Under the pieces are notes generated by a model that ran no database searches, had not been told where the DNA came from, and worked only from the letters and a program-made list of their open reading frames with translations. The position numbers were made by a program, and so were the translations under genes. A stretch of 64,000 nt of DNA from an uncultured Methanosarcinales archaeon (GTDB lineage Archaea; Nanobdellota; Nanobdellia; Woesearchaeales; DATGWN01), in assembly GCA_964557345.1 (NCBI GenBank), contig CAZKZU010000001.1, positions 555-64,554 of the forward strand, given 5' to 3'. How positions within the stretch are numbered: the stretch's first letter is position 1; each line of letters starts with the position of its first letter. This document shows, piece after piece, positions 22,206-51,702 of this stretch.

Positions 22206-22589
22206 TTAAGTTTTAATATCTACTTTTTCCCAGAATGCAGCATCATTTATGCTTCCATTTAGATACGAGTCAATTGCGTCTTTGTGAACTACTATTTTTG
22301 CAGTTGATTTGCCATCCAGAGTATTAATGATTGTTATTTTAGTATAATTAAAACTTGCAGATGTTGCCATTATAGTTGCCCAATCTGCGATTATTTGAGT
22401 GTCATATTCATTTGCTAAGGCTGCATCATAAGTAATGGTTACGCTGTTAAAAAAAGTGTCTATATCTGATACGTGTAATCCTTGTTCTTTTAATGAAAAT
22501 TCTAGAGAATCTGTAGACATTTTAGAACTGCATCCTGATAGCATAAAAGTTATTATTAATGCTAATGTTATTATTAGTATTTTTTTCAT
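22206..22589 (-). CDS. Small secreted lipoprotein
   Basis: Signal peptide plus lipobox LSGC|SS. Confidence 0.5.
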   Translation of the reverse strand: MKKILIITLALIITFMLSGCSSKMSTDSLEFSLKEQGLHVSDIDTFFNSVTITYDAALANEYDTQIIADWATIMATSASFNYTKITIINTLDGKSTAKIVVHKDAIDSYLNGSINDAAFWEKVDIKT

Positions 22590-22650: not shown

Positions 22651-23934
22651 TTAATATCCGCTAATTCCATCAGTATCACAATGTTCTGGGTCATCTATGC
22701 ATTTGTTTATTGCATGTGTTCTTTGTGCACGTGCGTTTGCTAATTTCATTGCTGCATCGAATGTTTCTTTTGTTACAGTTGAAATTGTACTTCCAAATAC
22801 GGGAACATAACTAGTTGCGTATTCTAATCCTTTACCTAAATAAACTCCGCCTTTAAGGACGTCTGCTTTTCCTTTATCCAATCTTCCTTCAGCAATTAAT
22901 TTATTTATTTTATCTACTTTAGTGTAAACTTCGTTTACTTCATCATAAACTTTTTTGAATTTTTCTATTTTTTCATTTATTGATTTATATTGTTCAGATG
23001 CTTTGTCGTATTTTGCTTTCATTTCTTCAAGTTGATTTAAGTTTTTCTTTAAATCATATCCTGCAGTATTTTTTGCCCATTTCCATCCTTCTTCAGCAAT
23101 TTCTCCTACTTTTTCATCTACTTCTTCTTGAGCATAATCTGTAACGCTTGTTTTCAATTGATCAACTAATGTATTTGCTTTTTCATCTAAGCTTTTTATT
23201 AATTGTTTTTCATCTTTTATTGTTTCAAGTTTAGTCATTAATGTATCTATATTTGCATTTGGATTTTGAACTTTGTATGCGATGTATGCTTTTTTTATGT
23301 CTGAGGAAACATCTTCATCATCTACATCACCAATAACGCTATTTATTCTGTCTCTTGTATATTCGCTTTTTTGTCCAGCTGGTGCAACGCCGAATAGATC
23401 ATCTTTTTTAGTTTGTAATGTTGATAATTCCGCTCTTGTTTTTGAATCAGTTGGATCGCTTGCAAGCTTATCTTTAAGGTCGCTGATTTGGGTGTCCATG
23501 TCTTTTAATGAACTTGATGTAACTCTACTTGATATCGTTGAAGTGCATTTTTGTTGTTCTGCTTGGGATAATTTTGAACATCCTTTTACGTCCATTTTAT
23601 CTGTTGCAATTCCTGAAATACATTCTTCTTTTGTATAAGATCCATATCCGCCTGCTATTTTTGAACAATCAGCATATTTTCCCGTTTCTTGAGCTACCAT
23701 TAAATAACATTTATCTTTTGGCGGATTTGAACCCATTTTTTTATATTCAGGAGGTGCAGTTACTTTTGCACATTTATCTGAATTTCCAGAGCCGACTGCT
23801 GCTTGCTGGTAGCAATGACTTGAGTCAGGATTGATATCGCAAAGTAATTCAGTTAATTCAGGAATTAGATCGCATCCGGGTAGAATTAGTAGTAATGCGA
23901 TTGCAAGGATAAAGATAGCAGATATTTTTTTCAT
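22651..23934 (-). CDS. Secreted lipoprotein with a Cys-rich N-terminal module and long coiled-coil
   Basis: Signal peptide with LPGC lipobox; about 14 Cys in the first 130 residues; K/D/E-rich heptad-like remainder. Confidence 0.45.
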   Translation of the reverse strand: MKKISAIFILAIALLLILPGCDLIPELTELLCDINPDSSHCYQQAAVGSGNSDKCAKVTAPPEYKKMGSNPPKDKCYLMVAQETGKYADCSKIAGGYGSYTKEECISGIATDKMDVKGCSKLSQAEQQKCTSTISSRVTSSSLKDMDTQISDLKDKLASDPTDSKTRAELSTLQTKKDDLFGVAPAGQKSEYTRDRINSVIGDVDDEDVSSDIKKAYIAYKVQNPNANIDTLMTKLETIKDEKQLIKSLDEKANTLVDQLKTSVTDYAQEEVDEKVGEIAEEGWKWAKNTAGYDLKKNLNQLEEMKAKYDKASEQYKSINEKIEKFKKVYDEVNEVYTKVDKINKLIAEGRLDKGKADVLKGGVYLGKGLEYATSYVPVFGSTISTVTKETFDAAMKLANARAQRTHAINKCIDDPEHCDTDGISGY

Positions 23935-24819: not shown

Positions 24820-25533
24820 TTATGGATATTTAATTCCACTTGGAATCATATTTGAAATATCTTGTGCTGCTGCGGGTAATTGAAATACGCTTGAGTCAAC
24901 AGTTCTTAATACCTTTGTTGCAATCATATTTGATTGAGGTGTTGCCATTTCAAGTAAAATCCCGTCATTTGTATAACAAACTTTAGATGTGGACTTATTA
25001 TAATTGACTTCGTATTTATTTCCAGTTTCTCCTGCTTGTGTACAAGTTCCAATAAGTGTTGATATTACTGAACCATCTTTGATTCCACTTTCCATTTGAG
25101 TGTTAGCAGGTTTTGGAACATCCATTTTAAAACAAGTCCAAGATCCAGCCATATTATTACATGAATTAACAGTATTTCCATCAAATATTACTTTAGCATC
25201 TCCTTGGGTAGTTTTTATGATTGTAGCTAATTTAGGAAGATCTAATGCAATTGTCATTGTTTGAACGGGATTTGATCCAGCTGTTAAACTATAATCTACA
25301 GTGTATTTTGGGACAGCAACTGAAAGAATGTCTTTTAAAGATTTTCCTTCAACTTTTGGTGTTGTTGGAGTTTCAGTTTTTGTGGGTTGTTTTTCTGTTT
25401 GTGTTTCAGGCGTTTTTGATGTAACTGAATCAGTGTTTTGTTTTTGTTTCTCTGTATTAACAGTAGAATTTTCTTGTGAGCATCCTGCTAGTATAAGCAG
25501 TAGTGCCAAACATATTATTCCTAATATTTTCAT
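24820..25533 (-). CDS. Secreted lipoprotein with a Thr/Pro-rich linker
   Basis: Signal peptide plus LAGC lipobox, then a TETPTTPK low-complexity linker and a Cys-containing domain. Confidence 0.5.
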   Translation of the reverse strand: MKILGIICLALLLILAGCSQENSTVNTEKQKQNTDSVTSKTPETQTEKQPTKTETPTTPKVEGKSLKDILSVAVPKYTVDYSLTAGSNPVQTMTIALDLPKLATIIKTTQGDAKVIFDGNTVNSCNNMAGSWTCFKMDVPKPANTQMESGIKDGSVISTLIGTCTQAGETGNKYEVNYNKSTSKVCYTNDGILLEMATPQSNMIATKVLRTVDSSVFQLPAAAQDISNMIPSGIKYP

Positions 25534-30986: not shown

Positions 30987-31448
30987 TTAATTTACGTTAA
31001 TTGTGCCGACGTTTTGTTTATTTAGTTTAATTGTTGTAAATCCTTTTGATTTTGGTATTATTGTGATTGATATGTTGCTATTCGGAATTAGTTTACCTTG
31101 GAATTCAGAACCGTATATTGGAATTTCTATTTCTTGCGAGTAGATGTCTTTATTTATTATCATTAGATTTGTAGTTCTGTTGAAAGTTAGGTTTAAGTTT
31201 CTGGGAATAAGTCCTTCTTTGTGAATTGTTAGAGTTTTATTTTCTTCAGGATTAACTATGTTATTATTATTTTCTTGTGAATTTATTTGATTATCTACAT
31301 TAGAGGGGATTATTGTTTTTTCTTCATTATCAAAAATAGGTGTTGTTGTTTGTATTTCTTGATTATTAGAACAGGCGCTAAGGACAAAAAGTGATACAAA
31401 AATTAATATAAAGATTAATTTAAATGAAAAAAAATTGATTGGTTTCAT
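30987..31448 (-). CDS. Small secreted lipoprotein, tandem paralog of 31453..31869
   Basis: Signal peptide plus LSAC lipobox. The C-terminal ...GTINVN matches ...GTVNVK of the neighbouring gene. Confidence 0.45.
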   Translation of the reverse strand: MKPINFFSFKLIFILIFVSLFVLSACSNNQEIQTTTPIFDNEEKTIIPSNVDNQINSQENNNNIVNPEENKTLTIHKEGLIPRNLNLTFNRTTNLMIINKDIYSQEIEIPIYGSEFQGKLIPNSNISITIIPKSKGFTTIKLNKQNVGTINVN

Positions 31449-31452
31449 TTAC

Positions 31453-31869
31453 TTATTTAACATTAACAGTTCCTAATTGAACGCCTGCTAATTCTAGAGG
31501 GTAAATTCCTTTATATTTTGGTGTTGCTGTAATAATTGCGTATCCGCCTGCAACAATGTCTTCTCTTACGTTCATTTGAGGAATTTCTACTCTTTTAGTA
31601 TCGCTTTGGGAATTGTATATAGTAATTGTATTAGCTACTCCTGCTGTCATACTTATTGTACTTGGATTAAATTGACCATCAATAATTTCAATATCCCACG
31701 ATATTGGTTTAGCTGGAGAATTAACAACAGTTGTGTCTTTTGTTTCAATAACTTTTGAAGTGTCTGCTGCTTGAGTAGTGTTGTCGTTATCAGCAGGCTG
31801 TGCTGTGCATGCAACTAATAAAAGAGCTGCAATCATCATTATTATTGTTATTATTTTCATTTTTATCAC
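31453..31869 (-). CDS. Small secreted lipoprotein, tandem paralog of 30987..31448
   Basis: Signal peptide plus LVAC lipobox; shared C-terminal beta-rich domain. Confidence 0.45.
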   Translation of the reverse strand: MIKMKIITIIMMIAALLLVACTAQPADNDNTTQAADTSKVIETKDTTVVNSPAKPISWDIEIIDGQFNPSTISMTAGVANTITIYNSQSDTKRVEIPQMNVREDIVAGGYAIITATPKYKGIYPLELAGVQLGTVNVK

Positions 31870-33322: not shown

Positions 33323-34540
33323 TTACTGGAAATAAGCTGTGTCGTTAAAGACTGGAGCTCGATTCTTATTTTCAATTACAATTGCTATATCTTTGCTTAC
33401 TGAATCTTTACCATCGCTTACAGTTACAATTGTTTTATAATTTCCTGCATCTGTATAAGTTGTTTGGTATGTTGAAGATTTCATAAAGCCGCTATATGTA
33501 ATTTTTAAGCTGTCGCCATCTTTGTCTGAAACTACAGGTTTTATTTCAATTAAATCTCCTTCTGAGACTGTAATTGTGCTTGGTACGTCAATTACTGGTA
33601 GATTGTTTAAAGCCTTAACTGTAACTTTAAATGTTTCTTTGTCTTGTAATTTCCCGTCGGATGCTGTTACATCTATTTCGTAAACTCCTGCGTCTCCTAC
33701 TTTAGTTGTCCATTTTCCATTTGTATCAAGTGGCATGCCATATACTATTGATAATGCATCTCCATCTGGATCTGTTGCGCTTGCAGAAACTTTTACAGTG
33801 TCTTTTTCAGTGACTGTTAAGTCAGAGATAGGAGATAATTTTGGAGCTCTGTTTACGTTGTTGATTGTAATTGAAATTGTTTTTGTGTTTTCAGTTTTAC
33901 CATCTTTAGCTGTTAATGTTACAGTTTTATCTCCTGCATCACTATAAGTTGTTTGGTATTCTGAAGTAGTCATAAATCCTGAATATTTTAAAGTTACTTT
34001 GTCGCCATCTTCATCAGTTACTGTTGGATTGAATGTAATTAAATCTCCTTCATTTACTGTGATGTCTTTAAAGTTTGTAATAACGGGTGCTCTATTTACA
34101 GCGTCGATAATTAATCTGATTTTTTGAGTACTTTCAAGTTGACCATCGGAAGCAGTTACAGAAATAATATATTCTCCAGCATCTCCGATTTTAGTAGTCC
34201 ATTCTCCATTTTTGTCTAACGGAAGTGAAAATGTATATGTTAATTTACTTCCATCAGGGTCATAAGCTAAATCTTTTTTAAATTTTACAACATCGCCTTC
34301 TTTGAAAGTTTTTGTTGGAAGATCTTTGATCGCTATGTTATCTTTGCTGTTATCTACGATTACAGTAGATTTATTTTCTTTTGCTGTAGTGCCTTCAGTT
34401 GTATTGCTTTTTGAATAATTCAAATCAAGCAGTACGGACTTAGTGTCATTTGTATTATTTGCACTAGTTCCGGTTGGTGTTTGGCAACCAGCTAATACTA
34501 GTAGAAATAAGCACAATATTATTGCTAGTACTTTTTTCAT
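33323..34540 (-). CDS. Surface lipoprotein with three or more cadherin-like / putative-Ig (He_PIG-type) repeats
   Basis: LAGC lipobox; repeated ~90 aa modules containing NRAPV...D.DGD.L...Y signatures. Confidence 0.55.
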   Translation of the reverse strand: MKKVLAIILCLFLLVLAGCQTPTGTSANNTNDTKSVLLDLNYSKSNTTEGTTAKENKSTVIVDNSKDNIAIKDLPTKTFKEGDVVKFKKDLAYDPDGSKLTYTFSLPLDKNGEWTTKIGDAGEYIISVTASDGQLESTQKIRLIIDAVNRAPVITNFKDITVNEGDLITFNPTVTDEDGDKVTLKYSGFMTTSEYQTTYSDAGDKTVTLTAKDGKTENTKTISITINNVNRAPKLSPISDLTVTEKDTVKVSASATDPDGDALSIVYGMPLDTNGKWTTKVGDAGVYEIDVTASDGKLQDKETFKVTVKALNNLPVIDVPSTITVSEGDLIEIKPVVSDKDGDSLKITYSGFMKSSTYQTTYTDAGNYKTIVTVSDGKDSVSKDIAIVIENKNRAPVFNDTAYFQ

Positions 34541-35118: not shown

Positions 35119-36525
35119 ATGGACAGAGATTATATTTTTCATGAGTCAACAGAGAGTATTTGCCCGAAGTGTTTAGCGCGAATACCTGCCAAAATAATCT
35201 ATAAAGATAATAAGGTTTTTCTGAAAAAGTTTTGTAAAGTTCATGGTGAACAATTGGAATTGTATGAAGAAGATATTGAATATTATGAAACCAAAAAAGG
35301 ATTTGATAAGCCAGGTACAATTTCTAAAACGCAAACTAAAATTAATCGCGGATGTCCTTTTGATTGCGGGTTATGTCCTGATCATGATCAGCATACTTGT
35401 ATTGGTCTTATTGAAGTAACCAATAAGTGTAATCTTAATTGTCCAACATGTTATGCAAATAGTGGGAAAGGGAATTTTTTGTCTTTAGATAAATTATCTA
35501 AAATGATGGATTTTTTGATTGAATCAGAAGGTGGGCAGTCAGAAATTTTGCAGATTAGTGGAGGGGAGCCAACTATACATCCTGAAATAATTAAAATTAT
35601 TGAGTTAGCGAGAACTAAAAAAATAAATTACGTTATGCTTAATACTAATGGTGTGCGAATTGCTGAGGATGAGAATTTCGTAAAATCTCTTGGTAAGTTT
35701 AAAGGAAAGTTTGAAGTGTATTTGCAATTTGATGGTTTTTCTCCTAAAGCAAATATTGCACTTCGTGGAAAAGATTTGGTTAAAATTAAATTGAAGGCAA
35801 TCGAAAATTTGCGAAAATATAATATTCCCATAACTCTTGTAACAACAGTTCAAAAGGGTTTGAATGATTCTGAATTAGGGAAAATAATTAAGTTTGGAAT
35901 GGAAACTTCTTGTATTAGAGGAATAAATTTTCAACCGGTTTGTTATTCTGGAAGAGGTTCATTTAAAGACACTAAAAAGACTGAATTAATAAATGATCGA
36001 ATTACGCTTTCTGGCGTTATTAAAAAAATAGAGCAGCAATTGCCAGAAGTATTTGTGAAAGGCGATATTGTACCATTACCTTGTAATGCTGAACGTGTTG
36101 CTGTTACGTATTTGGCAAGATCTGGTGATAATAATGGTAATAATAAAAAAAATAATGATTTTATTCCAATAACAAGAAGTGTTAAAGTTAAAAGTTATCT
36201 TCCCTTAATAGATAATACTTTTGGTTTTGATGCAGATAAGATATTAAAACAAAATGTTAAAAAGGCAATTACTCCTGCGGGTTTTTGTAATTGTATGAGT
36301 TTTATTAAAGATCTTAAAGGCATTATTCCTTTGAGTTATGCATTAAAATCTGATGACGAGAAACTCACTTATTTGAATGAAAATACATTTAGGTTAAGCG
36401 TTACTTCTTTTATTGATGTGTTTAATTTTGATATTAAGTCGATGCAAAAAGAGTGTGTGCATATTATAACTCCTGATTTTAAAAAAATTCCTTTTTCAGC
36501 ATATAATATGTTTTATAGAAAATGA
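35119..36525 (+). CDS. Radical SAM enzyme with N-terminal rubredoxin/Zn-ribbon-like Cys cluster and a second Cys cluster; possible lipid-modifying enzyme (Tes/GDGT-MAS-like, tentative)
   Basis: CPKC..(x)..CKVHG; CPFDCGLCPDHDQHTC; radical SAM Cx3Cx2C in VTNKCNLNCPTCYA; GGEPT motif. Followed by lipid-related genes. Confidence 0.65.
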   Translation: MDRDYIFHESTESICPKCLARIPAKIIYKDNKVFLKKFCKVHGEQLELYEEDIEYYETKKGFDKPGTISKTQTKINRGCPFDCGLCPDHDQHTCIGLIEVTNKCNLNCPTCYANSGKGNFLSLDKLSKMMDFLIESEGGQSEILQISGGEPTIHPEIIKIIELARTKKINYVMLNTNGVRIAEDENFVKSLGKFKGKFEVYLQFDGFSPKANIALRGKDLVKIKLKAIENLRKYNIPITLVTTVQKGLNDSELGKIIKFGMETSCIRGINFQPVCYSGRGSFKDTKKTELINDRITLSGVIKKIEQQLPEVFVKGDIVPLPCNAERVAVTYLARSGDNNGNNKKNNDFIPITRSVKVKSYLPLIDNTFGFDADKILKQNVKKAITPAGFCNCMSFIKDLKGIIPLSYALKSDDEKLTYLNENTFRLSVTSFIDVFNFDIKSMQKECVHIITPDFKKIPFSAYNMFYRK

Positions 36526-36566
36526 TTGTTGTTAGAATTAATTAGGTTACAAAACAGTGGTTTTTA

Positions 36567-37151
36567 TTGACAATGGTAGATTTAATATTAGTAATTGCGG
36601 ATGTTGTAATTGGGCTGTGTCTTTTTGCGTTATTTACTTCTATACTTATTAATTTTGTAGAGTCTAAACATAAAGAAGTGAAAAAAGAAAAAAGAAGTAT
36701 AGTTGAAACGGGATCGATGACTTTATTTTTTATCTTTTTTTATTTATTAATACGATTTAAAATCGGCGCATTTGTCGTAGGGGATTTTGCTAGGGTCAGT
36801 TTGATTATAATAGGCCTAATTATGATAGTATTTGGATGTTTTGTTAACATTTTTGGTAGATTTAATTTAGGCAAAAATTGGGCTAACCAAGTTAAAATAT
36901 ATAAAAACCAAACTCTTGTGAAAGTTGGAGTTTATAGATTTGTAAGGCATCCTTTGTATGCTTCAATTATGTTGATGTTTTATGGTGCGTGTTTAGTGCA
37001 TTTGAATTATTTGGCGTTTTTTTCGAATACATTCATATTTATTCCATTTATGTATTATAGGGCGAAGCAAGAAGAATGGCTATTAAGTAAAACTTTTAAA
37101 GAATATAGTAAATATCAAAAAGAAGTAGGAATGTTTTTTCCAAAGTTGTGA
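36567..37151 (+). CDS. Isoprenylcysteine carboxyl methyltransferase (ICMT) / phospholipid methyltransferase family membrane enzyme
   Basis: VRHPLYAS motif and C-terminal EEWLL..FKEY..Y...V pattern typical of ICMT/PEMT; polytopic. Confidence 0.6.
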   Translation: MTMVDLILVIADVVIGLCLFALFTSILINFVESKHKEVKKEKRSIVETGSMTLFFIFFYLLIRFKIGAFVVGDFARVSLIIIGLIMIVFGCFVNIFGRFNLGKNWANQVKIYKNQTLVKVGVYRFVRHPLYASIMLMFYGACLVHLNYLAFFSNTFIFIPFMYYRAKQEEWLLSKTFKEYSKYQKEVGMFFPKL

Positions 37152-37708
37152 TTGTTATGAAAGCTAAATTAAATACAATGAAAAAAGTAAGTGTGGCTAA
37201 TAAAAAAGTTTTGAAAACTAATAGTTCTGTAAAATTAGAAACTTGTGATAGTTGTAAAACGTGTTCAACTGATTTAGTTGATATTAGAAAAGATGCATTT
37301 GCTTTTTGTCGATATGGAGTTATGGTTCTTGTTTGGATAGCATTTATTTTTAAAATTAAATGGTTGGTTTTATTGGTATTTGGAATTCTTGTGTTGTCGG
37401 CAATTCTTGGTGTGCAATATGCTCCAATGATTCTGTTATATAATTATACTGTTGGTTTATTTTTTAAGTTCAAAACAGAATCGCTTGGAATTAGCGGAAT
37501 GAGGTTTGCTCATACGTTAGGAAGTTTTTTATCTGGACTTGCGGTATTATTCTTATTTTTCTGGAATGTAAAAATTGGTTGGAGTATTACTTTGTTTTTA
37601 GCTATTATGAAGACGATTTCCGCTTTAGGATTATGTCCTGCATATAAATTATATAATTGTATGAAATCTGGTGGCTGTTGTTCTTTTACTAAACGATTGA
37701 GCAAGTGA
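37148..37708 (+). CDS. Membrane protein with Cys-rich termini (CDSCKTC; CPAYKLYNC..GGCC)
   Basis: Hydrophobic helices; overlaps the upstream methyltransferase stop (ATGA-type coupling). Confidence 0.3.
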   Translation: MIVMKAKLNTMKKVSVANKKVLKTNSSVKLETCDSCKTCSTDLVDIRKDAFAFCRYGVMVLVWIAFIFKIKWLVLLVFGILVLSAILGVQYAPMILLYNYTVGLFFKFKTESLGISGMRFAHTLGSFLSGLAVLFLFFWNVKIGWSITLFLAIMKTISALGLCPAYKLYNCMKSGGCCSFTKRLSK

Positions 37709-37754
37709 GTAAATGAATATTTCAGTAAAAATATTATAATAAACGGTAAACAAA

Positions 37755-38507
37755 ATGTTAGATTATCACACAGTTCCATCGGGAGTTTGGGGAATTAGAC
37801 CCGTTTTATTTAGTATTGGAAAATTTGAAGTTAACTCTTATTCTTTTTTTGTCCTTCTTGGGCTTATTGTAGGTCTTGCAGTATATTATTACTTGGCTAG
37901 AACGGAGAAAAAAGTTAATGAGAATTCTTTTTATGTTTTAATGGCGGGACTTTTGGGTGGCGTTATTGGCGCTAAGCTACCAATGTGGATTATTAATTAT
38001 CGTTTGATAATTGAAAGTTTTCCCGATATTACTCCTCTACTTTCAGGTAGAACTATTACAGGGGGACTTATTGGTGGAACTCTTGCCGTTATGTATGTTA
38101 AATACAAGTTGAAAATTAAAGATAAGAAAGGAAATTTATTTGCACCAGCTATTGCAATTGGTGTTGCTATTGGTAGAATTGGTTGTTTATTTAAAGGATG
38201 TTGTTATGGAATTGCAACAAGTTTACCTTGGGGTGTTGATTTTGGTGATGGAATACCTAGGCATCCAACTCAGATATATGAAATAATTTTTTTCCTTTTG
38301 ATGTTTGTGTTTTTGATGGTGAAGCGCGAAACTGCAAAACCAGGTCAGTTATTTTATTGGCTTATGAATAGTTATTTCATATTTAGATTTGTTGAAGAGT
38401 TTATTCGAGAAGAGCCAACTTTGTTTTTAGGTTTGACTATATTTCAATATATTTCAATTGTTGCACTAATTTTTATCAACGCAAAGTATTTAAATGAGAA
38501 GAAGTAG
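37755..38507 (+). CDS. lgt: Prolipoprotein diacylglyceryl transferase homolog
   Basis: Lgt signature GRIGCLFKGCCYG (G.R.GNF.NGE-like) and HPTQIYE. Polytopic, 250 aa. Confidence 0.65.
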   Translation: MLDYHTVPSGVWGIRPVLFSIGKFEVNSYSFFVLLGLIVGLAVYYYLARTEKKVNENSFYVLMAGLLGGVIGAKLPMWIINYRLIIESFPDITPLLSGRTITGGLIGGTLAVMYVKYKLKIKDKKGNLFAPAIAIGVAIGRIGCLFKGCCYGIATSLPWGVDFGDGIPRHPTQIYEIIFFLLMFVFLMVKRETAKPGQLFYWLMNSYFIFRFVEEFIREEPTLFLGLTIFQYISIVALIFINAKYLNEKK

Positions 38508-38516
38508 GTAAATGGT

Positions 38517-38885
38517 ATGGCGAATGTTAAAGTAACTAAGATGTCTAAAACTGAAAATAATTTTTCTAAAGTCGAAAAAGATTATTATGATACTACTAGT
38601 AAGAAAGTTGTTGATTTCTCAAAAGGCTTTTTTTTAAATATTGTAATTGGAGTTGTTGTTACAGTAATCAATTTCTATACTGGAGCGGCTATATTTGATA
38701 GTTCTCCGACGATAATAACTAGGCTAATTGGTATTGCAGTTCCTTTAACTGTAATTCCTTTGGAGATCTTTCTGATTAGACATTTTTTCAAACAGAAAAG
38801 ATTTATTGCAATTGGTATGTTGTCTTCTTTAATATTGCCATTGTTAGTTACTGGAACTTGTTCTTTTATGTTTTTAACGGCTTGA
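38517..38885 (+). CDS. Small membrane protein (tandem paralog 1)
   Basis: MANVKVTKMSK...DYYDTTSKK N-terminus followed by three TM helices. Paralog of 38936..39292. Confidence 0.35.
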   Translation: MANVKVTKMSKTENNFSKVEKDYYDTTSKKVVDFSKGFFLNIVIGVVVTVINFYTGAAIFDSSPTIITRLIGIAVPLTVIPLEIFLIRHFFKQKRFIAIGMLSSLILPLLVTGTCSFMFLTA

Positions 38886-38935
38886 TTAGTAAATTAGCTA
38901 AAAACATTTAAATTAGAGAGTAAATCATATTTACT

Positions 38936-39292
38936 ATGGCAAATGCAAAATTATCTAAAAAAGTAAAAATTGAAAAAGATTATTATCAATCAACTGCTAG
39001 TAAAGCAACTGATTTTGTAATAGGGTTTTTTGGTGTTTGGGTAGTTAATGCGTTAATTGGTTATGGGTCTTATTTAATGTTTGCTAGACTTATTAATTGG
39101 TCTGCTAATTATACTTTGATTTATTCCTTGACTACTATTTTTTATTTAGTAATACTTGGTTTAAATATTGCAGTAATAATTTTATCTTTTAAACGAAATA
39201 GGCGATATATTGGAATAGGAATTTTGTGTTCTGCGGTTTTACTTCCATTACTTGCTTTTGGAGCATGTATAGTTGCTCTTAGTGGTTTATAA
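38936..39292 (+). CDS. Small membrane protein (tandem paralog 2)
   Basis: MANAKLSKKVKIEKDYYQSTASKATDF followed by TM helices. Paralog of 38517..38885. Confidence 0.35.
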   Translation: MANAKLSKKVKIEKDYYQSTASKATDFVIGFFGVWVVNALIGYGSYLMFARLINWSANYTLIYSLTTIFYLVILGLNIAVIILSFKRNRRYIGIGILCSAVLLPLLAFGACIVALSGL

Positions 39293-39365: not shown

Positions 39366-40022
39366 TTATTTTTCATTAATGTTGTGCGGGTTTTCTAGTC
39401 CTATTAATTCACAGATTCCAAAATAAATTAGTCCTAACGCAAAATATGAGATTTGCATCCATATTGGTGCATGAATACAATTAAAAAATGGAATTCCGTT
39501 GTAAATAGCAGCAGATGCATTTTGAATGTTGAATACGTGGTATGCGATAGTTTCAATTGATATGAGAAGTGGCCAGTATATAGCGATGAATAAAAGCATT
39601 TTTTTCGCGTAACTTTTTGAGTTTATTTTGTGTTCAAGGTGTGAATATAATATGTACGTTAAAAATAATCCTGTTGCCCAGGCGAAAAGAGGGTAAATAG
39701 TTATTCCGAAAATAGTGAGCATTTCTTTGTTATAACCATATTGATTGTGTGCGAAAATCATCCATATTAGTGCAACTCCTGATGATACAAAAAGGTGATA
39801 AATTAATCTTTTTCTCGATGTTAAATATAAATATGGAAATAATAGAATATATGCTCCAATCATAACTAAATCTGGGCGAAATATAGCTAATAGGAAGAAA
39901 ATTAATAGAGTGATAATTTTGTCAAAAAAAAACATTTGTTTTTTCCAATTACGAGATTTTGTTTTAGTTTTAATATTCTGTTTATGCAAGAATATACTAT
40001 TTATGTATTTTGTTAAATTCAT
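39366..40022 (-). CDS. Polytopic integral membrane protein of unknown function
   Basis: Six or seven hydrophobic helices with no catalytic motif. Checked for the prepilin-peptidase GxGD motif; not found. Confidence 0.3.
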   Translation of the reverse strand: MNLTKYINSIFLHKQNIKTKTKSRNWKKQMFFFDKIITLLIFFLLAIFRPDLVMIGAYILLFPYLYLTSRKRLIYHLFVSSGVALIWMIFAHNQYGYNKEMLTIFGITIYPLFAWATGLFLTYILYSHLEHKINSKSYAKKMLLFIAIYWPLLISIETIAYHVFNIQNASAAIYNGIPFFNCIHAPIWMQISYFALGLIYFGICELIGLENPHNINEK

Positions 40023-41479: not shown

Positions 41480-43168
41480 TTGATGAAGAGTAAGTTAGCG
41501 CAGACAGCTAGTGCAGCAGGAGTAGTTGGTGTTATAGCGTTAGTTTTAATTATTTATATCGTATTAATTCCTGGTATTAAAGATTCTATTAATGGAGGAA
41601 GTTCTAGTGGCGGTAGTTCTGCTGGTGGGACAACAAGCGGTTCAACCCTTGTAAATGGATCTAGACCTTTAAATTATGTTGATCAGTTTTCTTTTCCAGG
41701 TCCTGGATTAGTTGATAGTTCAACAAATGGAAGGCAAATTATTTTACCTACTCTTAATCTTAAGACAACTACAAATTCTAAAATTTTAGCAAGTGATAAT
41801 AGTTTTTATGTGTATAAAACTTTTTTTGGAAATGATAAAAGAAAATCAATTATGTTTGATATTAAAGATTCAGAGCAAATTAGTAATGCACAGATTTCCT
41901 TTTTAGTTAAGAAATCATACGGTATGATTTATATTGATTTAAACGGCGTTAGAATTTATGAAGATGAACTTAGTTCTATGAATATAAATCCAATTAAAGT
42001 AAGTTCTGCTTTATTTCAAAAAAATAATTTATTAGAAATTTATACTGACTATCCAGGAATTGTATTCTGGAGACAACATCAATATATAATTGATGACTTT
42101 AAACTTTTTGCAGACGTTACTCAAACAAGTCAACAATCAAGTTTGGTTTCTTTTGATCTTAAACCATCAGAATTTAAATCATTAAGTAGATTGAAACTTA
42201 AATTTTATCCAACTTGCACTCAATCAACTGTCGATAAATTATATGTCTCATTAAATGGGCAAACAATTTCTGAACAAGTTCCTGATTGTAATGTATTAAA
42301 TATTTATGATCTTCCTCAAATACAAACAAAAGAAGGAATGAATACTATCGAGTTTAAAACTTTAAAAGATTCGTACTTGGTTGATCAACTTTCAGTGCAG
42401 ACTGAGCTTAAAGAAAATGATGATTTAATTTATACTTTTGATTTAGATAAAAAATTATTTAATTTTAAAGAAGAAGCTAAAAACGTGTGTGGTGAATTAG
42501 ATGGCGTATGTCCTGATTCATGTACTGCTGATCAAGATAAAGATTGCTGTTTCTTAGAATATAATAAAGGATTTTGGTGTACTGCTCCAACATTAAATGA
42601 AAATGATAAATGTGTTGGTAGAGTTGATAATTATAATATTGGTTTATGTCCTTCTGGATATGAAGATAAAAGTAAAAATCCTCCAACTGATTTTGAAAAT
42701 TTATGTGGTGATGATACTGATGGTACTTGTCCATTAGGTTGTTCTAAATTTATGGATAAGGATTGTTGTTTTGAGAATACTGGATATTGGTGTTCCGACG
42801 TTGCAACTAATGGAATGGCTGGCGTTTGTGTTGATGTTGTTACAAAAGATAGTTGTTCTTTTTGTCCTAGCGGATATAAAGGAGAGGATTCAACTCCAAC
42901 TTGTGATGGTTATGAAACTAGAAATCCAATGGAAGAAGTTTCTCAATTAAAATCTACATATCAAGCTGACGTTCAACTAAGATTTGTTGATGATGGTAAT
43001 AGAAAGAAAGGTAAAATTATTGTTGATGGTAGTACTATTTCATTTACTACACTAGAAGGAACTTATACTAAAGAAATTAGTACATTAGTTCAAGATGGAA
43101 ATAATTATGTGCAGATTGTTCCTGAAAGCGATTTCAATTTAGTTAATGTTAAGGTTACTGTTAAATAG
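41480..43168 (+). CDS. Surface protein with a pilin-like (class III-type) N-terminal signal and tandem Cys-rich modules
   Basis: N-terminus MMKSKLAQTASAAGVVGVIALVLIIYIV. Repeated C..DG.CP..C....DKDCCF...G(F/Y)WC modules at ~42480-42915. Confidence 0.4.
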   Translation: MMKSKLAQTASAAGVVGVIALVLIIYIVLIPGIKDSINGGSSSGGSSAGGTTSGSTLVNGSRPLNYVDQFSFPGPGLVDSSTNGRQIILPTLNLKTTTNSKILASDNSFYVYKTFFGNDKRKSIMFDIKDSEQISNAQISFLVKKSYGMIYIDLNGVRIYEDELSSMNINPIKVSSALFQKNNLLEIYTDYPGIVFWRQHQYIIDDFKLFADVTQTSQQSSLVSFDLKPSEFKSLSRLKLKFYPTCTQSTVDKLYVSLNGQTISEQVPDCNVLNIYDLPQIQTKEGMNTIEFKTLKDSYLVDQLSVQTELKENDDLIYTFDLDKKLFNFKEEAKNVCGELDGVCPDSCTADQDKDCCFLEYNKGFWCTAPTLNENDKCVGRVDNYNIGLCPSGYEDKSKNPPTDFENLCGDDTDGTCPLGCSKFMDKDCCFENTGYWCSDVATNGMAGVCVDVVTKDSCSFCPSGYKGEDSTPTCDGYETRNPMEEVSQLKSTYQADVQLRFVDDGNRKKGKIIVDGSTISFTTLEGTYTKEISTLVQDGNNYVQIVPESDFNLVNVKVTVK

Positions 43169-43300: not shown

Positions 43301-45598
43301 ATGGCTAATGTTCCTGGCGCTACTGGAGGTTCTTCTACTAGTAGTCCCGTTACTCCTTCAGCTCCCATCATTCCTAAGCCGGGATTTATGGAAAGGTTTG
43401 GAAAATATATTCCTTTTGTTGTAAATAAGTCAAGAGCAGCGGCAGTAGCTGGTGTGGGAATGGCGGGTGCAGCTTGGGGATTTGGATCTAAAGTAGCTAA
43501 AAGTGTTGCTGAAAAAGCGCCTTCTATTAAATATTCAATGATGTTTATTATTGCATGTATTTTGGCAGCAGTTAATTTTGTTTATTCTTCCAATAATACT
43601 TTAAAATTAAGTCTTCTTATTGTATATTTGGTTATTTTTTATTATTCATTTCAGAATAATATTGATAATATAAATAAAGAATACGGAAAGATCATCTTTT
43701 TTTCACTGATATATATTTTTGCTCCAACACTTGGTAATTTACTTGTATCATATGTGCCTGATATTGGTATTAGAAATTTATTAGTATATTTTTTGTTTAT
43801 ATTTGGATATTTGAGTCCATTGATAATGCTTTTATCAGTTCATCATGAAGAAAATTGGTTTAGCATTACTTTAGAATTACTTTTAGTCTTTTTCTTAATA
43901 GTTTTAGTTTTAAAATTTATGGCTACAGCAGGAATTCTTCCAGAAGGAGATCAAATTAGTTCTGATCAAAAGGAGGCATTTACTTCATTATTTGTTGGGA
44001 CTTGGGACACCATTAAATCCATTCCTACTTATGTTAAAACCTCAATCAATGGAACTGCGCACGATATAAATCAATCTTGGAATCAGATTCAAGGTAATAG
44101 TTATGAGGAAGAAATTGATCAAAGTGCCCTGGTAAGTACTCTTGGTTTAAAATTAAATGATATATCTTTTTCTAATACAGATGGCGCTTATTATCAAGGA
44201 GATCCTATTGATGCATGGACCTCTATTGAAGGAAAGAGTCTTGCTCGAGTTATTAAAGTAAAAACTTCGTGTGTTGTTGATAGGAAAAGAGGTTTAACTG
44301 AAAATATAACTTGGGTTCCTAAAAAACCTGAATTTTATATCAACGATATTGGATTTGAAGATATCTCGTGTAAGTTTCCAAAAAATAAATTTACTACTGT
44401 TAGAAGTTATGAATTAGAAATGTTTGCTGATTTTGATTTTACAACTAGTTCATATTTAAGACGATATTTTATTTCTGAAGCAGATAATAATAATATGAGG
44501 AAAAATAATATAGATCCAATTGTTTATTATAATATTCCACAGACTGATGAAGAAGGTAAATATACTAACGGACCAGTTGAACTTTCAGTTGTTAAAAACA
44601 ATTTATTACAACCTTTAGCTGATCAAGGAGATACTTTTTTATTAGGAATTAAAATCGCGACAAATAGAAAACAAGGTTTTGGCGATGGTAAATTAGTTAC
44701 AATGACCAATCTTCATCTTTCTTTGCCCCCCGGATTTGAGCTTGCTAGAGATGGTTCTAGATATGACTGCGGTAATTATGAGTTCGAAGTTTATCCTGGT
44801 GCTGATTGTATTGCGGATTGTACCCGGCTTATGAAAGGAGAAAGATGTATAGCTGATTGTAATAATTATAATAATTATAGGTTAAAAGCAGCTGATTCTA
44901 ATAATATAAGTGCTGGTGTTTTACCAAAAATAAAAGAAGAAGGAAAAGAATTCGTTAAATTACCTTTGCAAATTCCATGTTATGTGAAAACTAAATCTTC
45001 GCAATCTATACTTAAAACATCCAAGTTCGTTATGGAAAATTTCAGAGCAACAGCAGATTATGATTTCGAAATTTCAGTAGCAAAACCTTTTAAGATTCAA
45101 GAAAAGCAAGGTTATGTTAATGCAGAAAAATTAGCTGATTTTTGTGGCTTTAAAACAAGTTATATCAATTCAAGTTTAATTACAAAAGATAATGTTAATA
45201 GTTTAATTTCCAGGTCTGCTGAGCTTATTAATGATAGTAAAGTTTCTTTTTCAGGTTCAACAGTTTGTTCACAATTAATCAAAGCTATTGTCGTATATAA
45301 GAATAGAAATGGTGTTGAAAATAATATGGGTTATGGAATTACTGGTATAACTGAAGAACAGCTTGATTATTCTTATCAATGGCCAACTAATTTAGCTAAT
45401 GTTGAAACACAACATCAAGATATAACTTTAACTTCAAATTATTTGAAATATGCGCTTAGTCATGAGTGTACGATTGATGGACAACAAAATTTAGATTGTG
45501 CTCTTGGTTATTATTTCTGTAATTCTGGAACTGGTAGTTGCGTTGAAACTGTAGCTCCAATTGTAATACAGATCGCTAAAGCATTAAGTACTCCTTAA
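43301..45598 (+). CDS. Large polytopic membrane protein with a Gly/Ala-rich N-terminus and a large Cys-containing extracellular domain
   Basis: 765 aa; multiple TM helices at residues ~80-215, then ~550 aa soluble domain with many Cys. Confidence 0.4.
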   Translation: MANVPGATGGSSTSSPVTPSAPIIPKPGFMERFGKYIPFVVNKSRAAAVAGVGMAGAAWGFGSKVAKSVAEKAPSIKYSMMFIIACILAAVNFVYSSNNTLKLSLLIVYLVIFYYSFQNNIDNINKEYGKIIFFSLIYIFAPTLGNLLVSYVPDIGIRNLLVYFLFIFGYLSPLIMLLSVHHEENWFSITLELLLVFFLIVLVLKFMATAGILPEGDQISSDQKEAFTSLFVGTWDTIKSIPTYVKTSINGTAHDINQSWNQIQGNSYEEEIDQSALVSTLGLKLNDISFSNTDGAYYQGDPIDAWTSIEGKSLARVIKVKTSCVVDRKRGLTENITWVPKKPEFYINDIGFEDISCKFPKNKFTTVRSYELEMFADFDFTTSSYLRRYFISEADNNNMRKNNIDPIVYYNIPQTDEEGKYTNGPVELSVVKNNLLQPLADQGDTFLLGIKIATNRKQGFGDGKLVTMTNLHLSLPPGFELARDGSRYDCGNYEFEVYPGADCIADCTRLMKGERCIADCNNYNNYRLKAADSNNISAGVLPKIKEEGKEFVKLPLQIPCYVKTKSSQSILKTSKFVMENFRATADYDFEISVAKPFKIQEKQGYVNAEKLADFCGFKTSYINSSLITKDNVNSLISRSAELINDSKVSFSGSTVCSQLIKAIVVYKNRNGVENNMGYGITGITEEQLDYSYQWPTNLANVETQHQDITLTSNYLKYALSHECTIDGQQNLDCALGYYFCNSGTGSCVETVAPIVIQIAKALSTP

Positions 45599-45857: not shown

Positions 45858-46820
45858 ATGAGAAGAAGTATTTTAAGATTGATTTTGATTGTTGTGGTAG
45901 TATTTTCTTTATTGTTCATGTCTGGATGCGGATCTAGCGGTAATACAATTAATTACATTTCTGATAATCAATTTAGAACTGGTACTAATGGAGTTACTAT
46001 GGAATTTGTGCAAAATTCTCCTCCTGAATCGATGATTGAAGATGCTGAAGTTTCTGTTGGAGTTAAATTACATAATGATGGCGCTTATAATGTTCAAAAT
46101 GGGTATTTAGTTGTTAGTTATGATAAGGATTATTTGACTTTATTTAATACGGGACAAAAGTCCTTTAATTTAGAAGGGAAAAATAAATATAATAAAGCTG
46201 GTGAAGAAAAGAGTATTTTTTTTGATGGTAAAACTTCTGTGTTAGAAGTTGAAAGCCAAAGACATGATGTTCCAATTGTAGCATCTATATGTTATCAATA
46301 TAATGCAACTTTATTAGATTTACTTTGCTTTGATACTCCTGATTTGCCGAATAAAGAAAAGGGTAAAACTATTTGTTCCTATAAGTCCGATTATTCTTAT
46401 AGTGGCCAAGGGGCTCCAGTTTCGATTTCTAACGTTAAATTAACTTTATCCTATTCTGAGGTTACTCAAAAATTTAAACCCATTATTGACTTTGAAATAA
46501 GTCATACTGCAAGTGGTTTTAGTAGTGATAAAGGCTTGGTTGTTAATTATGATAATTATAGATCAGCATGTACTAGTTCTGGATCGTCATCTTTTGATAA
46601 TTTGAATTTAGTTAAATTTGAGGCATCAATATCTGATGAAATTTTATCTTGTAATAAAGAAGAAGGGACAGTTACTCTTAGAGATGGAAAAGCAAATGTT
46701 AGATGCACTGGAAATTATATTGAGGCAGGATATTTGCCTTATCAAGCTCCATTAAAGATAGATTTACTTTATGGTTATATGACTACTACATCTACGACAA
46801 TGCAAGTAATTCGAAGTTAA
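45858..46820 (+). CDS. Secreted lipoprotein
   Basis: Signal peptide plus lipobox MSGC|GSS; Cys-containing beta-rich protein, 320 aa. Confidence 0.45.
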   Translation: MRRSILRLILIVVVVFSLLFMSGCGSSGNTINYISDNQFRTGTNGVTMEFVQNSPPESMIEDAEVSVGVKLHNDGAYNVQNGYLVVSYDKDYLTLFNTGQKSFNLEGKNKYNKAGEEKSIFFDGKTSVLEVESQRHDVPIVASICYQYNATLLDLLCFDTPDLPNKEKGKTICSYKSDYSYSGQGAPVSISNVKLTLSYSEVTQKFKPIIDFEISHTASGFSSDKGLVVNYDNYRSACTSSGSSSFDNLNLVKFEASISDEILSCNKEEGTVTLRDGKANVRCTGNYIEAGYLPYQAPLKIDLLYGYMTTTSTTMQVIRS

Positions 46821-46895: not shown

Positions 46896-47687
46896 TTAGA
46901 TTAGTTCAAATACGTAGTTTTTAACATACAAACTATTAGTAGTTGTAGAATATGTCACTATTTGGTTTGTATCGATTTTATAGATTTCTTTATTTGTTAA
47001 TTTTACGCACGTATCTTCTGTTTTTGTTACTTTACATCTAACAAAGAAGTCTTTAGCTTGATAGATAGTTGATATGTCTGTAAAAAAATCCGATTTAGCT
47101 GTAAAGTGTGGCCAGTAATAATAGTAGCTATGATCATTATTGGTTGCCATTCTTTTTATTCTTTCGCTATGTTTTGCAATGCCGTATACATTTTCATCTT
47201 TTTCAATTAGTGTGTAATTATTAGGGGAAATAGCGTTTATTGTTTTGTCTTCTTCTTTGTTATCCATTATAATTGAGTTGTATAATTTTATTTTGTTAGG
47301 TAGTTCTAAGTTGGTTTGATTTTCCATCCACTCCAATGCATATTTAGATAAATCTAATTGATAAGTTGAATTTTGGAGAATAATTTTCCCGTCTTGTTTT
47401 GGTAGATTTTTAATGGCATAGTCTTCGAAGATTTTGCTTTTTTCATCAATTATCTTTTGTGACGCAGTTTCAATGAAGAACCTTTGTTTGTAGCTTTCTT
47501 GCTTCATTTCTGTAATTTTAGCTGCGTCTATACCAACATAAGTAGTTGAGGATATTTGTGTTGCAATTCCACTAATTGCTATGTATAAAACGAAAATAAC
47601 GAATACCATTAATAGACTTACAATTAGGACTGATGCTTTTTTTCCAGCTTTATGTATTGAACTTTTTGTATTGTTTTTTGTTGTCAT
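46896..47687 (-). CDS. Pilin-like protein (class III signal peptide)
   Basis: Signal HKAGKKA|SVLIVSLLMVFVIFVLYIAI; last gene of the minus-strand pilin-like cluster. Confidence 0.4.
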   Translation of the reverse strand: MTTKNNTKSSIHKAGKKASVLIVSLLMVFVIFVLYIAISGIATQISSTTYVGIDAAKITEMKQESYKQRFFIETASQKIIDEKSKIFEDYAIKNLPKQDGKIILQNSTYQLDLSKYALEWMENQTNLELPNKIKLYNSIIMDNKEEDKTINAISPNNYTLIEKDENVYGIAKHSERIKRMATNNDHSYYYYWPHFTAKSDFFTDISTIYQAKDFFVRCKVTKTEDTCVKLTNKEIYKIDTNQIVTYSTTTNSLYVKNYVFELI

Positions 47688-47691
47688 TTTT

Positions 47692-48189
47692 TTATTTATC
47701 GGTTTTATCTAAAAACATTAGGTATGCTCCTCTATTTTGATAGTTAACCATTAATTCAGCAGAGTATGGATTAACTATTACTATTGAAGGTATTTCTATA
47801 GCACTTTTTCTATATGGCAATATTAAATATGACTTTTTGAAAGGCATTTTATCATTAAAATTTTCATTGGTTACTATGTCCCCTTTAAACGTTACATATT
47901 CTTTTTCAGCAAAAATATTATTGCTATCATCATAATTTTTTAGTTCAATGGTGATTGGAGTATACTCATCGTAAAGAGATCTATTCATCTTTATTAGCAT
48001 TGGAATAAATGAATCTACAATGTCGTTATTGTGAGAATCTGTTATTTTTTTGTTTTTCATTTCTTCTAGTTTAGAACTTAAGAGCCAAAAACCTACTATT
48101 AGTGCTACAAGTATGATTACTCCGATTATTACATCAGTCGCAAGATCTGCTTGTGCTTTTTTTGTATTCCTTATGGTTATTGGTCTCAT
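47692..48189 (-). CDS. Pilin-like protein (class III signal peptide)
   Basis: Signal TKKA|QADLATDVIIGVIILVALIVGF. Confidence 0.4.
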   Translation of the reverse strand: MRPITIRNTKKAQADLATDVIIGVIILVALIVGFWLLSSKLEEMKNKKITDSHNNDIVDSFIPMLIKMNRSLYDEYTPITIELKNYDDSNNIFAEKEYVTFKGDIVTNENFNDKMPFKKSYLILPYRKSAIEIPSIVIVNPYSAELMVNYQNRGAYLMFLDKTDK

Positions 48190-48300
48190 GTTTTTTAGTT
48201 ATTATTTTTCTAGTTTTTTCTTTTATGTTTTTAGTTATTTTATTGTTTGTTCTAGTATTTTTTAGTGTTATTTATTGCACTCTTATTATTATTCTTATCA

Positions 48301-48792
48301 TCATATTTTCCAAAATGATATATTTATCTTTCCGGCTTTGTATCCGTTAGTATCTTTGATTAAAATAGGATAAACTTTACTAAAATCAGGCCTGTCGATA
48401 TAATTTATTGTTTTTAATGATCCATTTACCTCGTTGTTTTTATCGTAAACAGTCAGTTTTACTCCTTTATTTTCTTCCTCAGAATAAAGTCCCATGCAAT
48501 TACTAAAAGTTACGTTATTAGTTAGTTTTGATTCGTCTATTACTTTACTATATTTTATTCCTGTGAATGGATCAATGTAATTGATACAATTGAAAGCTCT
48601 TTCTTCAAAGTTAAGAACGTTTGTTCCGTATGTGTTTTTGTAATATTTGTCGTTAATGCCTGTTGCAAGGATCATTAAGAATATGAATAGAACTATAATT
48701 ATAATTATTGCAATTATATAATAACCCATTTTATTTCCTAAATCAAATGATTCAGATTGGGCCTTCTTATTTAATTTCTTGAATGGTTTCAT
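48301..48792 (-). CDS. Pilin-like protein (class III signal peptide)
   Basis: Signal NKKA|QSESFDLGNKMGYYIIAIIIIIVLFIF. Confidence 0.35.
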   Translation of the reverse strand: MKPFKKLNKKAQSESFDLGNKMGYYIIAIIIIIVLFIFLMILATGINDKYYKNTYGTNVLNFEERAFNCINYIDPFTGIKYSKVIDESKLTNNVTFSNCMGLYSEEENKGVKLTVYDKNNEVNGSLKTINYIDRPDFSKVYPILIKDTNGYKAGKINISFWKI

Positions 48793-48805
48793 TTTTTAGT
48801 TTAAT

Positions 48806-49840: not shown

Positions 49841-49915
49841 TTGATTTTATTATTTTGTTTTATTATTATTTTTTCTTTATAGTTTAGTTCTTAGTATTTT
49901 CATATTTTTCGTCCT

Positions 49916-50809: not shown

Positions 50810-50812
50810 TTT

Positions 50813-51409: not shown

Positions 51410-51702
51410 ATTTTCCTCTTTCTTTTTAGTGTGAATGGAAGTCCTAGTAAAAACATAGGTTTGAAATCTTTTGTAAGTGTGCAAGTTGCAGTTTCTTGTC
51501 CAGGGATACATTGTCCAACCCCGCCGATAGTTTGGTTTACTACATCGTTTTCTCTTCCAATGTTTTTAACGAATATGAATATTACAACGACTAATACAAG
51601 GATAAGGATAGTTGCAATTATAACAGTTGAAAGTGTTAATTCATTGGATTTTTTATTATTAATATTTACTTTTGATTTTTGGTTGTTAGTTGTTTTTGTC
51701 AT
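51361..51702 (-). CDS. Small Cys-containing pilin-like protein; paralog of 53947..54207
   Basis: Signal NKKS|NELTLSTVIIATILILVLVVVIF; short C-terminal Cys-containing domain. Confidence 0.35.
   Translation of the reverse strand: MTKTTNNQKSKVNINNKKSNELTLSTVIIATILILVLVVVIFIFVKNIGRENDVVNQTIGGVGQCIPGQETATCTLTKDFKPMFLLGLPFTLKRKRKICKNSTTQKKPAQASL

Follow-up and report, generated by a model that had tools for sequence, protein, structure and literature searches.

Among the closest described counterparts of the system treated here are the bacterial prolipoprotein diacylglyceryl transferase Lgt, whose active site is said to have been placed at the outer membrane face by Mao and colleagues in 2016, and the radical S-adenosylmethionine (radical SAM) enzymes Tes and TrsS, the latter reportedly named by Haft and Tolstoy in 2025. 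For archaea, work on lipoproteins states that no homolog of Lgt is known; lipobox proteins are nonetheless prevalent in genomes of DPANN archaea (Diapherotrites, Parvarchaeota, Aenigmarchaeota, Nanoarchaeota and Nanohaloarchaea) without any Lgt homolog, with AliA implicated (PMC12462473), so that lipobox proteins do not demand an Lgt. Here we analyze an Lgt-like gene in a 64,000-nucleotide stretch of contig CAZKZU010000001.1 (assembly GCA_964557345.1) from an uncultured archaeon of the Woesearchaeales, the whole of which is referred to as the window. The existence of the gene is already known from public records, in which its relatives carry the label 'prolipoprotein diacylglyceryl transferase', and is hence not new. 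The main result is rather the cassette in which it resides as the fourth of six genes on the same strand with tight spacing (35119-39292). It is a candidate, concrete enough to be tested, for a new pathway that modifies proteins or lipids:

35119..36525, + strand: cassette gene 1, radical SAM enzyme of the Tes/TrsS clade (Pfam Zn_ribbon_HMPTM and Radical_SAM)
36567..37151, + strand: cassette gene 2, membrane methyltransferase of the ICMT/PEMT family (PF04140, PF04191)
37148..37708, + strand: cassette gene 3, DUF4395 membrane protein (PF14340, 40.9 bits)
37755..38507, + strand: cassette gene 4, the Lgt-like protein, 250 residues from an ATG start, a PF01790 membrane transferase of a cassette-bound subfamily
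38517..38885, + strand: cassette gene 5, small protein of 122 residues with three transmembrane helices and an N-terminal DYYxxTxxKxxDF motif, of the same family as gene 6
38936..39292, + strand: cassette gene 6, paralogous small protein of 118 residues with three transmembrane helices, ending RNRRYIGIG...LLPLLAFGAC followed by IVALSGL

A first-pass annotation of the window had described the fourth open reading frame (ORF) as a 250-residue protein with the Lgt signatures GRIG...G and HPTQIYE, and both are present as quoted, in the form of GRIGCLFKGCCYG at residues 140-152 and RHPTQIYE at residues 169-176. The profile comparison proposed there bears this out: residues 16-240 align to positions 1-233 of the 240 in the Pfam model PF01790 (LGT) at 138.1 bits (E=3.9e-40), where the gathering score is 24.9. 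E. coli Lgt (5azb/5azc) was the sole match when PDB sequences were searched with phmmer. A structure predicted by AlphaFold2 from an input of 37 relatives (pLDDT, the predicted local distance difference test, 89.7; pTM, the predicted template modelling score, 0.86) was compared with the PDB by Foldseek, where 5azb was the sole match with E<=1e-3 (E=7e-9, probability 1.00, TM (TMq) 0.64) and the next-best match stood at E=0.4; by model and structural match the protein has the seven-helix fold of Lgt. By hidden Markov model (HMM) and by predicted fold, ORF 37755-38507 is a genuine member of the Lgt family. Its subfamily has no model of its own in Pfam or NCBIfam.

To compare active sites, the Lgt-like protein was aligned to E. 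coli Lgt, whose residue numbers in the PDB chain are shifted by +1 relative to those in UniProt. We take the activity of the E. coli enzyme to need Y26, H103, R143, N146, E151, G154, H196, Y235, R239 and E243. The equivalents of Y26, R143, G154, R195/H196, Y235, R239 and E243 are Y29, R141, G152, R169/H170, Y207, R211 and E215, all invariant in 37 subfamily members, so that both catalytic arginines (R141/R211) are retained. H103 is replaced by T102, at a position that varies between T, V and I across the subfamily, and N146 and E151 by C144 and C149, which together with C150 make up an invariant GRxGCxxxGCC(Y/F)G signature; the other invariant motif of the subfamily is FGD..RHPTQ. The cysteines at positions 146 and 151 were considered as a mark of altered activity and rejected as such, since stand-alone Lgts that pass the NCBIfam model TIGR00544 share the GC..GCC signature.

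In order to place the protein among its relatives we fetched 91 loci (L numbers below) and sorted their Lgt-like proteins into groups A, B and C by HMM searches. Group A is the cassette clade and includes the protein of the window. Group B, mostly from soil metagenomes, carries the signatures GRIGCFLTGLxDxTyG and FGDG..RHPTQLYE, and group C consists of stand-alone, canonical-looking Lgts; stand-alone relatives with an ordinary-looking 'W.GGLSFHGG' motif likewise contain GRIGCF.NGCCYG. A phylogeny of the Lgt-like protein, also proposed in the first-pass annotation, was obtained as a crude neighbour-joining tree, in which A and B are sisters with C outside, and archaeal and bacterial members interleave within A. 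The Lgt equivalog model TIGR00544 separates the groups at its cut-off of 118.9 bits: group C scores 123-146 bits and passes, group A 77-92 and group B 56-58. The protein of the window reaches 86.7 bits, below the functional-equivalog cut-off like all cassette orthologs tested, and 124 bits with NF000778, for which the cut-off is 334. Going by this curated sequence test, the Lgt-like protein is of the Lgt family and fold but outside the functional equivalog.

The enzymes encoded upstream of the Lgt-like gene show a similar relation to their characterized families. The radical SAM protein contains an N-terminal zinc ribbon, a CX3CX2C core and the auxiliary motif CPFDCGLCPDHDQHTC, and scores 343.8 bits with NCBIfam TrsS (NF045646; cut-off 490) and 325 bits with Tes (NF045702; cut-off 450). 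Together with five other cassette radical SAM proteins, which reach 351-371 bits with TrsS, it falls in a range of 344-371 bits for TrsS and 299-328 bits for Tes, below both cut-offs, which sets them apart as a third clade of the family. The gene 2 product scores 47.8 bits with PF04140 (threshold 24) and 40.7 bits with PF04191; with NF040696, isoprenylcysteine O-methyltransferase, it reaches 73 bits against an equivalog cut-off of 160, and its closest solved structure is the Methanosarcina isoprenylcysteine methyltransferase Ma-ICMT (4a2n, E=1e-10), which is of equal length. The DUF4395 protein, for which no NCBIfam model matches, has cysteine-rich ends (CDSCKTCS at the N-terminus, GLCPAYKLYNCMKSGGCCSF at the C-terminus) and is kept at the same position in L001, L002, L006, L007, L009, L010, L014, L090 and L091. 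On identical contigs, gene callers start gene 2 at 36573 (192 residues), and gene 3 is called from 37157 (183 residues). All six ORFs are intact, and identical copies come from three other samples. Convergent with the cassette, and present on identical contigs from other samples too, lies a gene for a 218-residue polytopic protein (39366-40022, minus strand), which matches nothing in Pfam or NCBIfam and has no similarity to the Lgt profile by hhalign.

The two small proteins encoded downstream, neither of which belongs to a Pfam or NCBIfam family, share a cytoplasmic N-terminal (D/E)YYxxTxxKxxDF motif and a C-terminal block made up of a K/R cluster, a hydrophobic helix, the sequence LPLLxxG-x-C and a short hydrophobic tail before the stop. 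In gene 5, KQKRF precedes the last helix, LPLLVTGTC ends it and a hydrophobic tail of seven residues follows, C115 being the sole cysteine. Just five columns of the small-protein family are invariant, two of them being the G and the C of G-x-C; the cysteine is usually single in the protein and is followed by 6-12 residues, rarely by about 30. G-x-C is thus a lipobox-like site close to the C-terminal end. Ten of the 12 cassette loci encode G-x-C proteins directly downstream of the Lgt-like gene, with one to four per cassette. A regular expression for the C-terminal block matched only ORFs directly downstream of group A Lgt-like genes and nothing elsewhere in the 91 loci or the 64-kb window. Searching a collection of 5.8 billion proteins with a profile of the small proteins returned 13 proteins, with the motif in every new sequence inspected, and the two contigs fetched on the basis of this search (L090, L091) both carry the proteins in a cassette, one of them with four copies. 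In divergent cassettes the downstream proteins are otherwise unrelated (61- and 78-residue proteins with one helix; a 90-residue zinc-ribbon protein with one helix) and yet end in ..LLLTGLC.., ..LLIIGVC.. or ..LLLGAC.. plus a short tail. The zinc-ribbon variant, in L014 (5765-6037, + strand), has an N-terminal CxxC..CxxC zinc ribbon in place of the DYY motif and the extra helices, which indicates that only the C-terminal block of helix, G-x-C and tail is under common constraint. By the positive-inside rule, with topology assigned from a hydropathy window and charge counts rather than by a trained predictor, both the N-terminus and the K/R loop lie on the cytoplasmic side, with the G-x-C cysteine at the outer membrane face.

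The genes for the radical SAM enzyme, the methyltransferase, DUF4395 and the Lgt-like protein occur in identical order around the closest homologs in archaea and bacteria. Cassette loci were found in Mangrovibacterium diazotrophicum (L001; Bacteroidota, 4.1-Mb contig, GCA_003610535.1), in Magasanikbacteria of the candidate phyla radiation (CPR; L002/L003), on a Woesearchaeota contig (L006), in two large bacterial genomes (L007, L090) and on one more contig (L091), while three divergent cassettes from metagenomes (L009, L010, L014) keep the order at 42-44% identity. Sequence outside the cassette varies between loci, which argues that it moves as one block. For the Lgt-like protein, identity amounts to 78% with the nearest relative, to 70-72% with proteins of Nanoarchaeota/Woesearchaeota and equally with those of Patescibacteria, to 64% with the Mangrovibacterium and to 55% with an Omnitrophica protein. 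As a vertical marker we used Pelota encoded in the window, with which its best relative shares only 57% identity and typical Woesearchaeota proteins share about 40%. A range of 55-78% across domains for the Lgt-like protein, against at most 57% for Pelota, argues that the cassette moved horizontally as a unit, and the gene was very probably acquired horizontally, as the first-pass annotation had supposed; the 72% to Patescibacteria and 64% to Bacteroidota speak for this part of its proposal. In GC content the cassette does not differ from the remainder of the window, so the transfer would not be very recent. The window itself is archaeal, judging from a Pelota that scores above its NCBIfam equivalog cut-off (203 against 177.65), named Pelota relatives that are all Woesearchaeota or Nanobdellota, and a Trm5b/Taw22-like gene. 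A single-protein search of genome contigs with the Lgt-like protein returned two distant Planctomycete relatives only, tblastn against plasmids gave no match, and a scan of viral contigs found relatives of 28-29% identity and no cassette. Full-text literature searches, in which the paper naming TrsS was not covered, found no description of the cassette, its cross-domain spread or the G-x-C small proteins.

Taken together, we tentatively favor a dedicated cysteine-lipidating module that acts on the cassette's own small proteins rather than a housekeeping lipoprotein pathway, and would give this reading a little less than an even chance. The Lgt-like enzyme would take a lipid moiety from a phosphoglycerol lipid donor by means of its conserved arginine pair and attach it through a thioether to a cysteine on the outer side of the membrane; its preferred acceptors would be the G-x-C cysteines of the small proteins encoded immediately downstream. 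These are proposed as acceptors because their last helix repeats the layout of n-region, h-region and cysteine recognized by Lgt, and because a single enzyme comes with one to four paralogs that resemble substrates. We also count for this reading that the predicted position of the G-x-C cysteine is on the same side of the membrane as the Lgt active site. The methyltransferase, DUF4395 and the radical SAM enzyme may then process the lipidated product or the lipid tails. The ICMT-like enzyme would act on the lipidated cysteine, a role suggested by the Methanosarcina ICMT as its best solved relative and by characterized relatives, which carry out carboxyl methylation of lipidated cysteines at protein C-termini. 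Lipid tails would be the target of the Tes-like radical SAM enzyme. We picture the module as an accessory acquired by transfer among CPR bacteria and DPANN archaea, and not as the route for seven lipobox proteins that the window also encodes. The steps observed are family, fold, arginine pair, synteny, cross-domain spread, co-conservation of the G-x-C proteins and outer-face topology.

Several points weigh against a dedicated lipidation module. Every step of it is a prediction from sequence and modelled structure. G-x-C is unlike a classical lipobox in having G fixed at -2 and allowing F or Y at -1, and a third small-protein paralog in L002 (4106-4552, + strand), upstream of the radical SAM gene, keeps YY..K..DF without a terminal G-x-C. 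On the short contigs L008 and L012, no G-x-C protein is found within the approximately 340 nucleotides present downstream. The replacements N146C and E151C, which also occur in stand-alone Lgts passing TIGR00544, alone give no pointer to a new activity. The cassette encodes neither a protease nor signal peptidase II. That cassette-bearing bacteria would also possess a canonical lgt is an expectation from general knowledge, and AliA, Lsp or a second Lgt may lie outside the 64 kb of this genome that the window covers. Finally, group B, which lacks the small proteins, indicates that a core pair of Lgt-like protein and radical SAM enzyme can work alone.

The last point leads to the main rival, lipid remodelling without a protein substrate, which we consider rather improbable. 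The Lgt-like protein would move diacyl- or dialkyl-glyceryl units and the Tes-like radical SAM enzyme would couple chain ends, so that scavenged lipids are adapted by CPR bacteria and DPANN archaea, with the small proteins as scaffolds or regulators. The most widespread linkage is indeed that of an Lgt-like and a Tes/TrsS-like radical SAM gene alone: the two directly adjoin in about 31 group B loci (L013, L017, L026, L041, L071 and about 26 more). In these loci the pair is accompanied by neither a methyltransferase nor DUF4395 nor a small protein, no G-x-C small protein appeared beside them even with a relaxed pattern, and clustering of group B neighbours revealed no third conserved gene, the high GC content yielding spurious ORFs only. 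Tes is established to couple lipid tails, and modification of host-derived lipids by DPANN archaea has been suggested by others. Remodelling leaves unexplained, however, the invariant outer-face cysteine in surroundings like those of a signal peptide, which is the sole feature of the small proteins kept in divergent cassettes, as well as the presence of an ICMT-type enzyme, whose characterized relatives act on lipidated cysteine, and the cassette is also found in free-living bacteria with genomes of about 4 Mb.

The reading of the first-pass annotation, a horizontally acquired, ordinary Lgt that lipidates the N-terminal lipobox cysteine of secreted proteins, appears unlikely. The annotation had counted at least seven lipobox proteins in the window (LSGC, LPGC, LAGC, LVAC, LSAC, MSGC), and all are indeed there:

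22206..22589, - strand: lipobox protein FMLSGC/SS, outside the cassette
22651..23934, - strand: lipobox protein LILPGC/DL, outside the cassette
24820..25533, - strand: lipobox protein LILAGC/SQ
30987..31448, - strand: lipobox protein FVLSAC/SN
31453..31860, - strand: lipobox protein LLLVAC/TA, cupredoxin-like (Pfam Cupredoxin_1)
33323..34540, - strand: lipobox protein LVLAGC/QT, with PKD/Big_9 domains
45858..46820, + strand: lipobox protein LFMSGC/GS

Each begins with the layout M, K/R, hydrophobic stretch and lipobox cysteine, and seven among the 67 ORFs of at least 100 residues is well above chance (mean 0.07, maximum 2, in 500 trials with the N-terminal 44 residues shuffled). Seven genuine lipobox proteins within 16 kb, together with the conserved family, fold and catalytic arginines, are what an ordinary Lgt would lead one to expect, and the cysteine signature shared with TIGR00544-passing stand-alone Lgts means that the active site is compatible with Lgt chemistry. 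Against this, the gene is always inside the cassette, scores 86.7 bits with TIGR00544 where 118.9 are required, and has H103 replaced. The cassette also occurs in a genome of the Bacteroidota, a phylum established to have its own essential Lgt. DPANN archaea without an Lgt homolog are still predicted to be lipoprotein-rich, with AliA implicated (PMC12462473). A search for the later-acting Lsp and Lnt, which had also been suggested, gave no Pfam match to either family among about 55 ORFs scanned of the window, that is, in 64 kb of the genome. The step from these proteins to 'bacterial-type lipoprotein maturation' consequently finds no support, given a cassette-bound gene below the equivalog cut-off, DPANN lipobox proteins without Lgt, and no match to Lsp or Lnt; the Lgt-like enzyme may still act on the N-terminal lipobox proteins in a secondary capacity. 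Two further observations concern the neighbourhood of these genes. A 205-residue protein with five predicted transmembrane helices (23931-24548, minus strand), whose stop overlaps the start of the lipobox protein at 22651-23934, has no family match in Pfam or NCBIfam and no similarity to the Lgt profile; considered as candidates for AliA-like or Lgt-like neighbours, neither it nor the 218-residue protein beside the cassette gave a match by Pfam, NCBIfam or hhalign. Just upstream of the lipobox protein at 45858-46820 lie ORFs of 562 and 765 residues (41480-43168 and 43301-45598, plus strand), the longer with four predicted transmembrane helices, neither of which matches Pfam or NCBIfam.

Somewhat less probable again is a prokaryotic, CaaX-like pathway assembled from different parts, in which S-lipidation of the small proteins near the C-terminus by the Lgt-like enzyme would be followed by removal of the hydrophobic tail. 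The ICMT-like enzyme would place a methyl ester on the lipidated cysteine that now ends the chain, and coupling or alteration of the lipid tails would fall to the Tes-like radical SAM enzyme. As proteins about 70% identical occur in CPR bacteria, which have ester lipids, and in DPANN archaea, which have ether lipids, such a module would need to accept either kind of membrane lipid or be insensitive to the difference. That the cassette is a decaying or silent remnant of transfer without function in this archaeon, a thought raised by the patchy distribution and backed by nothing specific, is highly improbable, with six intact, tightly spaced ORFs, identical copies in three other samples, all family-invariant residues kept and a GC content equal to that of the surrounding genome.

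Elsewhere in the window, about eight genes at 46896-53803 (minus strand), none with a Pfam or NCBIfam match, each encode a K/R-rich start and one transmembrane helix (..NKKAQSESF.., ..TKKAQADLAT.., ..SKKAEIFFLMEL..), and their N-termini resemble signal peptides of class III (type IV pilin-like). A 944-residue protein with Gly_rich_2 and Laminin_G_3 domains (58537-61371, plus strand) likewise has an N-terminus, METKRSQTATEYLIIL.., that is pilin-like in look. Anaerobic ribonucleotide reductase NrdD and its radical SAM activase (1925-5345, plus strand) point to an anaerobic lifestyle. The segment 5342-10870 (minus strand) contains a likely restriction-modification pair, a 971-residue ResIII helicase-type protein with a weak TnsA-like endonuclease match and a 685-residue N6/N4 DNA methylase, and 11254-12391 (minus strand) a HEPN/nucleotidyltransferase pair typical of toxin-antitoxin modules.

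An unambiguous PF01790 protein in a Woesearchaeota-type genome, with relatives in other DPANN archaea, is not to be taken as the missing archaeal Lgt, and the database label 'prolipoprotein diacylglyceryl transferase' on cassette proteins calls for caution in annotation. The cassette appears to have been exchanged among CPR bacteria, DPANN archaea and free-living Bacteroidota, and offers a handle on the sharing of membrane-modifying genes by ultra-small symbionts with different membrane chemistries. With Mangrovibacterium diazotrophicum the hosts include a named species, so that experiments would be feasible if a culture exists. Bacterial Tes homologs are discussed as candidates for the synthase of branched glycerol dialkyl glycerol tetraethers, a question for which the pairing of Lgt-like and Tes/TrsS-like radical SAM genes in group B may matter.

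Compared with bacterial Lgt (PF01790, TIGR00544, 5azb), the Lgt-like protein has in common the Pfam family, the fold and the equivalents of Y26, R143, G154, H196, Y235, R239 and E243; an outer-leaflet active site is to be expected here too, which makes a thioether on a membrane-proximal cysteine plausible. It is shorter than the E. coli enzyme by about 40 residues and lacks about 25 in the part that separates the signature from the RHP motif, and it differs from bacterial Lgt in general in scoring below the TIGR00544 cut-off, in having T, V or I for H103 and cysteine for N146 and E151, and in never being free-standing in group A, where it is always accompanied by the radical SAM enzyme, the ICMT-type methyltransferase and DUF4395. 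The candidate acceptor cysteine, moreover, lies in a G-x-C motif near the C-terminus of small polytopic proteins and not in an N-terminal lipobox. For AliA/AliB of Haloferax volcanii (arCOG02177/02178), which are reported in DPANN archaea, cysteine lipidation of archaeal membrane-anchored proteins has likewise been proposed (PMC12462473). The similarity of AliA to PF01790 is marginal (HHpred 29%, PMC12462473), whereas that of the Lgt-like protein amounts to unambiguous membership, and AliA is mostly vertically inherited while the Lgt-like gene is mobile across domains. CaaX processing by prenyltransferase, Rce1/Ste24 and ICMT resembles the cassette in having the acceptor cysteine a few residues from the C-terminus and, in the cassette, an ICMT-family gene in the operon, whose product is of the same length as Ma-ICMT (4a2n) and can be aligned to it across about 150 of 194 residues. 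Unlike in CaaX processing, the lipid transferase is an Lgt homolog and not a soluble prenyltransferase, the tail comprises 6-12 hydrophobic residues instead of aaX, no CaaX-type protease is encoded and the methyltransferase is under the NF040696 cut-off. With Tes and TrsS, lastly, the cassette radical SAM enzyme shares the zinc ribbon, the radical SAM core and the cysteine motif of the auxiliary cluster, aligning to the whole TrsS model, and differs from both in scoring below their equivalog cut-offs.

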